Positions 7,985-9,675 of a stretch of 64,000 bases of DNA are shown one piece after another. Numbering within the stretch: position 1 is the stretch's first letter; each line of letters begins with the position of its first letter. Made by a program: the position numbers and the translations under genes. The stretch lies in the NCBI RefSeq assembly GCF_053078305.1, contig NZ_CP166879.1. One strand, written 5' to 3'. The notes below the pieces were generated by a model. It was not told where the DNA came from. It worked only from the letters and a program-made list of their open reading frames with translations, and searched no databases.

Positions 7985-8329
7985 TCACTCTCCTTCTATG
8001 CGAATACCAGCAGCAGTCAGTACTGCATTGACCTCATCAGCGTAGTAGTACGTTAATCCACTTGATGATTTAGCCAGCTTGAATGGTTCTGGTAACTTCA
8101 CTGTGCGGGACTCCTGCTCGTCGATACGCTGTTTTGCTTCCTCCAGTTCATCCAGCAAATCAGCGATAATATCCACTTCACGATGACGGATTTCACGCTT
8201 AAACGCAGCCAAAGCTGCATCACAATCCTGCTCAGCGTTTGGACTGTCTGGTTTCTCCTGATACCACGCCAGCATCGACCGATAGTTTTGTGCTGCCTCA
8301 CGCAGCGCCTGATAATTAATCCCACTCAC
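7985..8329 (-). CDS. Hypothetical prophage protein (114 aa), GTG start
   Basis: GTG at 8329 preceded by AAGGAGG and overlapping the upstream TGA stop (GTGA); the ORF track's longer 7985..8509 version is probably over-extended. Confidence 0.45.
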   Translation of the reverse strand: MSGINYQALREAAQNYRSMLAWYQEKPDSPNAEQDCDAALAAFKREIRHREVDIIADLLDELEEAKQRIDEQESRTVKLPEPFKLAKSSSGLTYYYADEVNAVLTAAGIRIEGE

Positions 8330-8565
8330 TGGTTGCCTCCTTTGTGGATCTGCGCTGCGATGCACGAAAAAAAAAGACTCCCGCGTATGACTGTTAAGAG
8401 CTGGTGCGAACGCCGCGTTAAGAACGGCAGCATCACAGCCGTCATTGATATAGAGCGCAATTTTTTCTCCAGGCGCGCTTTGGCTTCCTGCAACTGCATA
8501 CCCCGGCACGCACGCGGGATATACTCAGCAATTTGAGCGATAGATTTTTCGTTCTGTTTAAACAT
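8326..8565 (-). CDS. Hypothetical prophage protein (79 aa)
   Basis: ORF ending in the GGAGG-containing junction that couples to the next gene. Confidence 0.4.
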   Translation of the reverse strand: MFKQNEKSIAQIAEYIPRACRGMQLQEAKARLEKKLRSISMTAVMLPFLTRRSHQLLTVIRGSLFFSCIAAQIHKGGNQ

Positions 8566-8762
8566 GCTTCACCTCGACAGGCTTGATGGTGTCGATCAGT
8601 AGTCGGCGGCGCGTATTTTCTGCAAAGTGGCGGCGTCCGGTTTCTTTGTGGTAAAACTCGTTTTTGTCGACGACCCACATCCGCTCCGTCTGGTGCAATT
8701 TTTTTTACCTGCGGACCGTCTTTGGTGATCACGATGCCGGTATGGGTTTTTACGATTGTCAT
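8558..8762 (-). pseudogene. Small prophage gene apparently disrupted at an A8 homopolymer (8699-8706)
   Basis: As read, the frame after the A-run gives an R/C/P-rich tail; with one A fewer it gives a plausible 66-aa protein whose stop overlaps the next start. Confidence 0.35.
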
Positions 8763-8875
8763 GCCACCACCTCTTCGAATTTCAATTGTTCACCCCAGAT
8801 TTCACATGACTCTGAACACGAGCCGGTATCGAATCGCCTGGCCTGCACCATCGCCTGATAGTTAATCTTCATCAT
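8759..8875 (-). CDS. Hypothetical small protein (38 aa)
   Basis: GAGG then ATG at 8875; stop overlaps the next start (ATGA); N-terminus MMKINYQ resembles the N-termini of neighbouring genes. Confidence 0.3.
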   Translation of the reverse strand: MMKINYQAMVQARRFDTGSCSESCEIWGEQLKFEEVVA

Positions 8876-9047
8876 CCTCACCCCACTCATCACAATAAGC
8901 TTCAACCGGAGTTTTTCCTGCTTCATAGTCATCACGCCATGCTTCAGCATCGGCGGCACTTCCACCGCGTAACTCTGCATAGTCCATTAACAGTTCATGC
9001 CATTCTTCAAAACTGGCGTTATATTTAGTTGAACCAAAATCAGCCAT
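8862..9047 (-). CDS. Hypothetical acidic small protein
   Basis: 61-aa ORF in the packed operon. Confidence 0.45.
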   Translation of the reverse strand: MADFGSTKYNASFEEWHELLMDYAELRGGSAADAEAWRDDYEAGKTPVEAYCDEWGEDDED

Positions 9048-9222
9048 TTTGTTCTTCCTCTTCGTCTTTTATTTCGTGATATGAGTAATTGCAGTAGTTA
9101 AAGAAAATTTCTTTTGCTTCGTCATGAATTTCATCAGGTGTTGCGTCATCGTCCACTTCGAATACATCCTCGAAACCTCCACCGGCTATTCCCGTTTCAA
9201 TAATTATTTTGAACTTTCGCAT
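9040..9222 (-). CDS. Hypothetical acidic small protein
   Basis: 60-aa ORF with 8-nt overlap to the next gene. Confidence 0.45.
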   Translation of the reverse strand: MRKFKIIIETGIAGGGFEDVFEVDDDATPDEIHDEAKEIFFNYCNYSYHEIKDEEEEQNG

Positions 9223-9369
9223 TTCACTACCACCCTGCCGGGCGGTCTCCTGATGTTCTGAGGGTGCAGGAATCCCTCCTGTTAAGGATTAAATTTTATT
9301 TACAGTGCTGATTTTAATTATTCAGATCTGGATTATGCTTTCTCTTTTACCTGCCGTAGTTCCTGGTAA

Positions 9370-9675
9370 TTAATTTCGCTCACTGGTTGCCTCCTGGAAA
9401 ATAACGGCATGTCCCAGTTTCTCCGCCAGTGCCAGTTCTGCCTTAGCGCCTGCCGACCGCTGCCAGCCTTTCAGCATATAAACCGCATCCACACAACGAA
9501 TCATTGCCATGCAAATATCCATGTAATGTGGCTGAGTCAGCCCGTCCGGAAGTACTGCCGGGTTTAAAACGGTATGCCCTTCCCGTTTCAGTGCTTCTTC
9601 CGCCTTGTGAAATGCCTCGCAGTTGAAATTTTCATATCCCGTCATTGGACCGGCGATATAAACCCTAACCCTCAC
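9370..9675 (-). CDS. DUF4406-like protein (nucleoside 2-deoxyribosyltransferase-like fold)
   Basis: 101 aa; N-terminal YIAGPMTG...NF motif. Confidence 0.55.
   Translation of the reverse strand: MRVRVYIAGPMTGYENFNCEAFHKAEEALKREGHTVLNPAVLPDGLTQPHYMDICMAMIRCVDAVYMLKGWQRSAGAKAELALAEKLGHAVIFQEATSERN

Follow-up and report, generated by a model that had tools for sequence, protein, structure and literature searches.

A repeated translation-start module at gene junctions of a prophage region as a likely joint between mosaic accessory genes of lambdoid phages

Introduction

Debate over the mosaicism of phage genomes sets homologous exchange at short conserved linkers against random illegitimate joining followed by selection. 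In HK620, the 2001 account of Clark and colleagues is said to contain seven boundary sequences, described as separating functional modules. In another group, the Cluster K mycobacteriophages, start-associated sequences consist of a conserved short ribosome-binding-site motif upstream of the starts of many unrelated genes, and they have been discussed as translation signals, not as recombination joints. For lambdoid phages, the relevant passages of PMC3029335 present short conserved boundary sequences as proposed foci of recombination (citing Clark 2001 and Susskind & Botstein 1978). The mosaics of temperate phages and defective prophages are flanked by short, diverged homology and their exchange has been attributed to Rad52-like recombinases; recombinases of the Red type accept homology that is short and diverged, and Red-beta requires at least about 30 bp (PMC3945230). 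The Ea22 genes are themselves mosaics, in which variable parts follow a common N-terminal segment (PMC10834534).

Here, we describe a 34-nt module that occurs twice within a 64-kb window, which is the whole stretch of DNA that was analysed, and compare its junctions with those in other phages and prophages. It seems likely that the module is a 'tail-to-head' joint which the mosaic accessory genes of lambdoid phages have in common, and which is used for the exchange of blocks. The features of the region are collected in Table 1.

Table 1. Features of the junction region, in coordinates of the window.
Feature	Position	Strand	Basis or remark
Intact ead/Ea22-like gene, 114 aa, GTG start, headed by copy 1	7985-8329	-	Pfam PF13935
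Module copy 1, full repeat: core and Ead head codons S-G-I-N-Y-Q-A-L-R-E	8296-8341	-	46-nt direct repeat
Module copy 1, core AGGAGGCAACCAGTGAG (SD, 6-nt spacer, GTG, AG)	8325-8341	-	Exact match
ArgO145 gp19-like small gene	8326-8565	-	Last codons K-G-G-N-Q-stop encoded by copy 1 core
ArgO145 gp20-like small gene	8558-8762	-	Frameshifted in window, extra A in A-run at 8706
Chimeric 38-codon ORF: ead head MMKINYQA fused in frame to PAPS-reductase tail (last ~33 codons)	8759-8875	-	
9-nt microhomology joint TATCAGGCG, ead head / PAPS-reductase 3' end	8852-8860	-	Three-way alignment
61-aa hypothetical gene	8862-9047	-	ArgO145: homologue, then intact ead gene gp13
DUF7167 gene, first of the 1054-bp block between copies	9040-9222	-	Pfam PF23768, 50.9 bits
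AT-rich leader block 3' of relic	9200-9337	-	BLAST blocks 9337/9338 to 9200
16-codon ead relic, VSEINYQELRQVKEKA-stop	9333-9383	-	DNA homology to 5' ends of intact ead genes
Module copy 2: core (9379-9395) and Ead head codons	9350-9395	-	Exact core match, direct repeat
DUF4406 gene	9370-9675	-	Pfam PF14359 over residues 4-93 of 101

Results

Anatomy of the repeated module

The module has the form AGGAGGCAACCAGTGAG-N4-ATTAATTAYCAGG, and its full sequence, AGGAGGCAACCAGTGAGNNNNATTAATTAYCAGG, is matched without mismatch on the minus strand at 8308-8341 and 9362-9395. This bears out the original prediction, which had placed a repeat at two plus-strand sites. By chance, 0 copies are expected, and 100 dinucleotide shuffles gave 0 matches. 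In a direct-repeat search the pair lengthens to 46 nt with 80% identity (8296-8341 and 9350-9395, spacing 1054). With up to 3 mismatches tolerated, the 17-nt core has these two sites only in the 64 kb, and no antisense or inverted copy is found in the window.

Judged from its sequence, the module corresponds to the start of Ead/Ea22-like (PF13935) genes, with the translation-initiation region and the first ~12 codons. A strong Shine-Dalgarno sequence is followed, after a 6-nt spacer, by the GTG start, and the conserved head of these genes comes next. The spacer, CAACCA, is the non-coding spacer inside the core, which ends with AG after the GTG, and the ~30 nt 3' of the core encode the conserved Ead/Ea22 N-terminus, S-x-I-N/D-Y-Q-x-L-R. 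The AGGAGG and GTG start predicted on the coding strand are correct at both copies, although the second GTG is at 9381-9383 and not at 9387. The description of the region as a nin-like operon also agrees with its position, 3' of the replication genes on the minus strand. Among several codon differences between the coding parts of the two copies are the synonymous AGT/AGC, TAT/TAC, CTG/CTA, and CGT/CGG.

Upstream ORFs close at the core in two frames, ending either in ...KGGNQ (with the TGA of GTGA as stop) or in ...EATSExx (with TAA or TGA inside ATTAAT or ATTGAC). An overlap of the GTG with the upstream stop, as had been suggested for the repeat, holds at copy 1 but not at copy 2, where the stop is a TAA 10 nt past the GTG and the genes overlap by 14 nt. 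This TAA ends the DUF4406 gene, whose last 8 residues (QEATSERN) and stop are encoded by copy 2 in the second reading frame, so that the product terminates in ...EATSERN. Tails of the ...EATSExx class are found behind many unrelated upstream genes.

Three ead heads within 1.1 kb

The gene headed by copy 1 encodes a product that reaches the Pfam gathering threshold for the Ead/Ea22-like family (PF13935 Ead_Ea22, 31.8 bits against a cutoff of 27, E 2.5e-7). Residues 2-73 align with positions 1-87 of the 139 in the profile, a coverage limited to its N-terminal and coiled-coil part. The homologue of this gene is annotated as ead/Ea22-like in three of the loci compared (L001-L003). The ArgO145 gp19-like gene that ends in copy 1 contains two compensating homopolymer shifts in the window, and its homologue in L002 is marked as frameshifted by PGAP. 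A search of NCBIfam gave no match for any protein of the region.

The 16-codon ORF that had been predicted to open at copy 2 was confirmed. It is too short for an HMM, and family homology past its start codon is seen at the DNA level: from 9395 to 9336/9337 it is 85-87% identical to the 5' ends of intact ead genes at at least 13 loci, and beyond this point the sequence is unrelated. By this homology, the ORF is a fragment of ead, not a member gene of the Ead/Ea22 family. Of 5426 complete E. coli genomes, 53 have the same scar. The AT-rich block that follows it is found behind different genes elsewhere (L155, L136, L123, L157, L132, and others).

The third ead head is diverged and occupies 8849-8875 on the minus strand, where a gene start MMKINYQAM had been noticed; the start is real, and 19 nt of it are 89% identical to copy 1. 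The ORF that it opens is not Ead along its whole length. Only the first ~8 codons are of this type and the remainder is a PAPS-reductase C-terminal tail, as recognized by a three-way alignment with ArgO145 gp21, which ends ...NLYQAMVLAKRFDTGSCSESCEIWG...EEVVA-stop. The ORF has no Pfam match, and its homologue in L002 is called by PGAP as a PAPS-reductase fragment without the N-terminus. The original prediction of a single truncated gene start left as a scar is thus confirmed for the truncation at ~9337, but it has to be widened to two scars, the second being the fusion of the ead head at 8875 to PAPS-reductase.

A 1054-bp difference bounded by the module

Strain 2012EL-2448 aligns to positions 10100-9362 and 8341-7202 of the window, in two segments that share exactly the 34-nt module, which leaves the window with an excess of exactly 1054 bp. 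In other E. coli genomes, DUF4406 is joined directly to ead, and precisely the 1054 bp that separate copies 1 and 2 are missing. In Megablast comparisons with other phages and with E. coli genomes, breakpoints coincide with all three copies of the head; those against other phages are at 8854-8860 and 8291, and it is at 8854-8860 that the pieces matching ArgO145 and other phages switch. The flanks in 2012EL-2448 are 91-93% identical to those of the window. A direct origin of this strain by deletion from a prophage of the window type was rejected on the basis of this divergence, from which it follows that neither is the direct parent of the other.

Tests for other kinds of element

Neither a promoter-like nor an intrinsic-terminator-like site was detected within the junction region or at either copy; one weak terminator-like match, at 7844-7858, falls within the ORF 7630-7983, which lies downstream of the ead gene. 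The covariance models of Rfam 15 have no match at the module, and their sole match in 6400-10500 is sok (6707-6882). No conserved RNA structure was found at the module, and its identity as a structured RNA or sRNA was rejected from the lack of an Rfam match and of a significant fold (mean z -0.66). A promoter/terminator cassette of the PeSL type was rejected since the copies have neither of these signals, nor a fold signal. A homing endonuclease as the driver of mobility was also rejected, as it showed no association with core-bearing loci: homologues of the ArgO145 gp11-like HNH gene are present in 4 of 120 such loci, and Pfam detected no HNH domain among the ORFs scanned in 7280-10700, a set that excludes several small ORFs including 9672-10073.

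The core across phages and prophages

The idea that the motif is no commoner in phages than expected by chance does not hold. A search of phage genomes found the 50-nt module in 378 of 50,697 records, HK97 and HK620 included, and the exact 17-mer in at least 120 IMG/VR stretches. HK97 has an unannotated, short, core-headed ORF of the Ead type after gp37, and HK620 has the module with 1 mismatch at the hkaH/hkaG junction. Across 141 exact core matches (fetched loci and the window), V-S-x-I-N/D-Y-Q-x-L-R follows the core in 107, and 14 of these 107 core-headed Ead-type ORFs have fewer than 75 codons. The genes headed by 34 core matches belong to at least 12 unrelated families, among them PAPS_reduct, DUF7739, DUF7446, and several orphans, and the upstream ORFs that end inside the core, in two frames, encode many unrelated proteins.

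Because the exact 17-mer was the seed for collecting the junctions, the core is conserved by construction throughout this sample. Its 159 unique junctions comprise 37 upstream and 38 downstream flank families in 109 combinations, and a single flank family pairs with up to 11-12 partner families. There are 128 pairs of junctions that are at least 98% identical over 160 nt to the left of the core and less than 50% identical to the right, and 63 pairs show the reverse, identity to the right and unrelated sequence to the left; in these 191 pairs the switch points are 0-39 nt from the core. In addition, 28 of the 159 junctions resemble the left of one junction combined with the right of another. 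Between flank families, homology decays within 0-25 nt upstream and mostly ~50 nt downstream (maximum 78 nt). In different genomes the short conserved core therefore has non-homologous flanks on both sides, and an upstream stop and a downstream start codon are located at the core in every junction examined.

Leaders fall into two groups, those near-identical to the core and those without relation to it, with no graded series. Among the other leaders of Ead genes, that of lambda ea22 is cagagaggttcgaaGTGAGC; the gene starts GTGAGCGAAATTAAC, and its GTG and the stop of the gene upstream overlap. Classes with an ATG start also exist. The search pattern MxxI[ND]YQxLR returned ATG-start ead genes only, as junctions with the GTG core are excluded by its design, and it therefore demonstrates that alternative leaders exist but gives no unbiased estimate of conservation.

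Discussion

A joint for block exchange and its rivals

These observations support the original suggestion of a portable linker at mosaic boundaries, in view of the unrelated families that it heads, the flank combinations, the 1054-bp indel, and the breakpoints at all three copies. Together, the exactness of this indel, the at least 12 families, the 109 combinations, and the 128 one-sided pairs point to a core that is probably a translationally coupled initiation region and also the mark of a recombination joint. The core would supply the Shine-Dalgarno sequence, spacer, and GTG and would close the upstream ORF within one long early operon; as it closes this ORF, the downstream gene is probably translated by coupling. 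The presence of the same short sequence at many junctions of co-resident phages and prophages suggests that it could act as a patch of homology for exchange, insertion, and deletion of blocks. Phage single-strand-annealing recombinases and RecA are the likely agents of the exchange pattern that is observed. Within the 1.1 kb, one Ead head belongs to a live gene (7985-8329) and two are relics, formed by illegitimate or microhomology joins just inside ead coding sequence, at ~9337 and at TATCAGGCG (8852-8860), which brought in the DUF7167 block and the block with the PAPS-reductase tail. The first 26 nt of the 16-codon relic still act as the 3' end and stop of DUF4406.

A different explanation is plain paralogy, in which related ead starts are kept similar by selection on the N-terminus and for a good ribosome-binding site, with no role in recombination; the location of the joints would merely reflect the loss of illegitimate recombinants with broken genes, as in the Hendrix model. 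The codon differences between the two window copies, some of them synonymous, are as selection at the protein level predicts, both relic-forming joints in the window are non-homologous or based on microhomology and are not crossovers in the module itself, and ead genes exist with other leaders; the last two points also count against a joint. Moreover, the identical core is just 17 nt, below the ~30 bp minimum of Red-beta, and longer homology surrounds it only where Ead heads or gp37-type tails flank. However, paralogy does not predict that the core, spacer CAACCA included, should be identical before so many unrelated families and behind dozens of unrelated upstream genes, or that leaders should lack intermediates. 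It is also difficult to reconcile with the 128 and 63 one-sided pairs that switch so near the core, as independent illegitimate events would not repeatedly strike the same joint. We regard paralogy alone as improbable, although illegitimate recombination and selection also shape the region and could explain some of the diversity of junctions.

The leader might instead be a shared operator, bound by a small RNA, an RNase, or a translational repressor that controls many early accessory genes together. Conservation of the spacer beyond the needs of a Shine-Dalgarno sequence, before many unrelated genes of one operon class, is in keeping with this. The lack of an Rfam family, an antisense copy in the window, a significant fold, or a conserved structure argues against it, nothing points to a cognate factor, and the conserved tails of upstream proteins and the exact 1054-bp indel would be left unexplained, which makes an operator very unlikely. 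The short length of the repeat is all that would favour chance or an artefact of assembly, a possibility that is negligible given the result of the shuffles, the 53 complete E. coli genomes that share the scar junction, and the 378 phage records that contain the module.

A stronger form of the joint reading is that the core and its arms are a selectively maintained 'universal joint', a dedicated recombination linker that doubles as a coupled translation start. Genes would be inserted between a tail of the gp37 or Ead type and an Ead head by the phages' own annealing recombinases, and lambdoid, P22-like, and even P1-like phages may in this way plug in any accessory gene. We consider this version rather doubtful. 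If true, it would provide a lambdoid counterpart of the T4 PeSL cassettes and an experimentally tractable instance of the Susskind-Botstein linker.

Significance and relation to known systems

Both sides of the mosaicism debate appear to be represented in this 1.1-kb stretch, as a reused joint of 17-50 nt and as two illegitimate joins that left truncated gene heads. The joint, in its at least 109 flank combinations, spans Stx phages, HK97, HK620, Salmonella phages, and P1-like phages. The linker model is directly testable, because the module is both short and well defined and classic laboratory phages carry it. It would also account for several unannotated or 'pseudogene' mini-ORFs in STEC prophages and for the odd C-terminal tails (KGGNQ, EATSExx) common to unrelated proteins, and it flags a predictable hotspot of deletion and insertion in prophage typing regions. 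The exact core sequence was not found in the searchable literature.

Several known systems resemble the module in part. T4-type PeSL cassettes (PMC2839356, PMC4122927) are likewise short repeated expression signals that flank small accessory ORFs, with insertions, deletions, and swaps occurring at the repeat in hyperplastic regions. However, PeSL consists of an early promoter and a stem-loop terminator, neither of which is present here, whereas the module is a translation-initiation signal within a polycistronic operon, with an overlap into coding sequence at either end. The mosaic ea22 genes of lambda and Stx phages (PMC10834534) belong to the same family (IPR025153/PF13935), but that work concerns mosaicism of protein domains and does not deal with a common SD-spacer-GTG core, with unrelated genes that use this core, or with truncated ead heads. 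The leader of lambda's own ea22 differs from the core. The exchanges in PMC3945230 involve the same group of phages, with traces of homology detected statistically in 50-bp windows; the present case is one specific joint, with at least 109 flank combinations and an exact core of just 17 nt. The lambdoid boundary sequences, in the passages of PMC3029335 that treat them, are likewise short conserved sequences at gene boundaries, with non-homologous modules on both sides, and proposed as a focus of homologous recombination. The joint would be a well-populated new example of this idea. The start-associated sequences of Cluster K differ from it in sequence, host, and phage group. Boundary sequences reportedly separate functional modules, whereas the present joint separates single accessory genes and recurs several times per genome.

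Composition of the repeated module

The repeat that the original prediction noticed is real. A pattern search of the window with the 34-nt AGGAGGCAACCAGTGAGNNNNATTAATTAYCAGG gave minus-strand matches at 8308-8341 (copy 1) and 9362-9395 (copy 2) with zero mismatches, and 0 matches across 100 shuffles of the sequence. The suggested alignment of the two junctions, made with a repeat search, covers 46 nt (80% identity), the copies being 1054 nt apart; the search also picked out, at 8849-8867, a third copy, which is more diverged and covers the coding part. The 17-nt core of the module has no further place in the 64 kb with up to three mismatches permitted.

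The module is a gene junction and, by its composition, a translation-start sequence: a predicted strong Shine-Dalgarno sequence (AGGAGG) stands 6 nt (CAACCA) before a GTG start that opens an Ead head. The copy-1 gene scores 31.8 bits with Pfam Ead_Ea22 (PF13935), whose cutoff is 27. Since the alignment begins at profile position 1, S-x-I-N-Y-Q-x-L-R is the N-terminus that this family conserves. In either of two frames, the core also terminates the ORF in front of it. At copy 1 the upstream protein terminates ...KGGNQ* on the TGA of GTGA, and at copy 2 the DUF4406 protein terminates ...EATSERN* on the TAA inside ATTAAT; its Pfam domain finishes at residue 93 of 101, so the last 8 residues are encoded by the module. 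Judging from the sequence, and from how overlapping stops and starts generally work, initiation at the GTG is probably coupled to translation of the preceding gene. No promoter-like or terminator-like site was found at copy 1 or copy 2, and no Rfam match or fold signal at the module. The 61-aa gene is another upstream ORF whose closing stop codon is embedded, here in ATTAAC: a 1-nt indel relative to phage ArgO145 (8862-8890 versus L005 4960-4990) carries its frame past ATGA, so that it ends ...DEWGEDDED* on a TAA lying within the third Ead head.

Gene layout

The genes of this region belong to a lambdoid (Stx-phage-like) prophage, in which they lie in a polycistronic early operon read from the minus strand. 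Compared with L002, a 99.5%-identical prophage, an A-run at 8706 in the gp20-like gene is one A longer, giving a frameshift, and a T-run at 8375 in the gp19-like gene is one T longer; the latter offsets an A6-versus-A7 shift (about 8466-8471), so the ...KGGNQ* ending is restored. These homopolymer differences could be real slippage or sequencing error. The O-like gene carries a perfect 12-bp tandem repeat (4.8 copies) coding for TENTTENTTENT..., with a second repeat of 23 bp (2.5 copies) nearby; the two sites, 11943-12000 and 12078-12136, are possibly origin iterons inside the initiator gene, by analogy with lambda.

Features of the operon and its surroundings
Feature	Coordinates	Strand	Remarks
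O-like replication gene	11476-12507	minus	
DnaC/IstB-like ATPase	10729-11469	minus	
DUF1627 gene	9986-10699	minus	
Small ORF between DUF1627 and DUF4406 genes		minus	homologues are DNA-binding protein per PGAP
DUF4406 gene	9370-9675	minus	
16-codon GTG ORF	9333-9383	minus	
DUF7167 gene	9040-9222	minus	
61-aa gene	8862-9047	minus	
38-codon ORF	8759-8875	minus	
gp20-like small gene	8558-8762	minus	
gp19-like small gene	8326-8565	minus	
Ead_Ea22 gene	7985-8329	minus	
117-aa gene	7630-7983	minus	
DUF551 gene	7280-7633	minus	followed by hok/sok
hok/sok killer locus	6557-6882		directly downstream of accessory-gene operon
Hok/Gef ORF	6557-6769		PF01848, 81.6 bits
sok RNA	6707-6882		Rfam RF01794, 121 bits
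Toxin-antitoxin-like pair	5773-6454	plus	strand opposite operon; RelE-family protein (PF06296, 159 bits) overlaps HTH_3 protein

Distribution of the module and evidence for exchange

In E. coli 2012EL-2448 (locus L001) the DUF4406 gene is followed directly by the ead gene. Window 10100-9362 aligns with L001 1501-2242 and window 8341-7202 with L001 2209-3363; what the two alignments share is exactly the 34 nt of the module, which gives the window exactly 1054 additional bp, bounded by copies 1 and 2. The L001 junction has its left flank from copy 2 and its right flank from copy 1. In strain FHI_NMBU_11 the same ead allele has a different gene in front of it, again with the module at the joint. 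Megablast alignments against phages and E. coli genomes have their breaks at 8854-8860, which is the third copy, and at 8291, immediately beyond copy 1. Of 5426 complete E. coli genomes, 53 have the DUF4406-relic-leader junction and up to 561 a direct DUF4406-to-ead junction.

The search of other lambdoid genomes that had been proposed found the module in 378 phage records, among them Stx phages, HK97, HK633, Salmonella P22-like phages and P1/D6/RCS47; HK620 has it with 1 mismatch at the hkaH/hkaG junction. The exact 17-mer is present in at least 120 IMG/VR stretches. Across the fetched loci and the window, 107 of 141 core matches are followed by an Ead head and the remaining 34 by at least 12 unrelated gene families, including a PAPS_reduct protein, DUF7739, DUF7446, a CPFCG zinc-finger family and several orphan families. 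These non-Ead genes all begin V-S because GTG AG belongs to the core, and some run from one core into the next, where they end ...EATSEQD*, as cassettes bracketed by it. For example, a DUF7446 gene (L045, L046, L078 and L084) ends ...KQEATSEQD* in the next core, the pairs lying 241 nt apart, and is thus a single-gene cassette between direct core repeats. On the upstream side, most proteins with the ending ...AAQLRKGGNQ* are HK97 gp37-like mosaic proteins, the others being Ead proteins that share this tail, which explains a second conserved arm (~TTCGCCGCACAGCTTCGCAA) left of the core. Those ending ...EATSExx* include DUF4406, DUF1627, DUF7446 and a predicted methyltransferase-like protein.

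In a junction sample seeded on the core, 159 unique junctions with at most 2 mismatches combine 37 upstream with 38 downstream flank families in 109 combinations, single families having up to 11-12 partners. A downstream-anchored scan, unbiased as to leader, gave about 12 distinct upstream contexts, of which 8 carry the core or a 1-nt variant of it; the others are unrelated sequences, not diverged forms of the core. Lambda ea22 retains GTGAGCGAAATTAAC behind a different leader. The module is common to unrelated genes on both sides.

Recent exchange at the core seems visible in several patterns. In 128 junction pairs identity is 98% or more across the 160 nt to the left of the core and <50% to its right, and 63 pairs have the reverse pattern; 28 junctions resemble left-of-A plus right-of-B, and switch points fall 0-39 nt from the core. 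Homology breakpoints and an exact indel coincide with the module. Together with the 109 combinations, they support the proposed portable linker at mosaic boundaries, with refinements. Crossovers would take place in the module, and phage annealing recombinases, which tolerate short, diverged homology (PMC3945230), would probably carry them out; the exact core offers only 17 nt.

Relics of ead genes

The original prediction took the 16-codon ORF for the one scar of a truncated gene. It is indeed an ead relic, but there are two scars, since the third copy is a relic as well, making two of the window's three Ead heads. At copy 2 the match to intact ead genes spans 9395 to 9336/9337, up to codons ...EKA, and is followed by a different AT-rich block (9337-9200) that elsewhere sits behind other genes. 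The joint at 9336/9337 is illegitimate, and the first stop codon past it gives the 16-codon ORF.

In ArgO145 the 61-aa gene is followed by an intact ead gene, gp13, and the PAPS reductase gp21 terminates ...NLYQAMVLAKRFDTGSCSESCEIWG...EEVVA*. At the third copy the window follows the gp13 head up to ...ATTAACTATCAGGCG and the gp21 tail from TATCA(A/G)GCGATGGTG on, and the alignment places the crossover within a 9-nt microhomology (8852-8860). PGAP independently annotates the homologue of the 38-codon ORF there as a PAPS-reductase fragment. Both relic-forming events are illegitimate joins, so two routes to mosaicism would be at work here.

Truncated heads are common: 14 of 107 Ead-type ORFs with the core at their head are shorter than 75 codons. 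HK97 has an unannotated one (L163 2518-2620; VSKIDYQALREIAKHQRL..., about 34 codons) directly after gp37, between it and a putative terminator upstream of xis. Separately, a second recurrent leader of 73 nt (9223-9295), just upstream of the DUF7167 start, recurs at 89% identity in L002 (3823-3895) upstream of a DUF4014 gene, and elsewhere the wider AT-rich block 9200-9337 stands behind a number of different genes. It is a further junction or leader sequence that can be reused.

Relation to known systems

The exact module sequence has no mention in the searchable literature, the text of Clark 2001 lying outside that search. The T4 PeSL cassettes (PMC2839356) are alike in behaviour, but they have a promoter and stem-loop, both of which the module lacks. 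Genes of the ea22 type are known to be mosaic (PMC10834534), and the module agrees with this. The idea of a short conserved boundary sequence in lambdoid phages goes back to Clark 2001 and to Susskind & Botstein 1978, as cited in PMC3029335; in the form in which it is cited there, the module fits it, and we regard it as an unusually well-populated further case.
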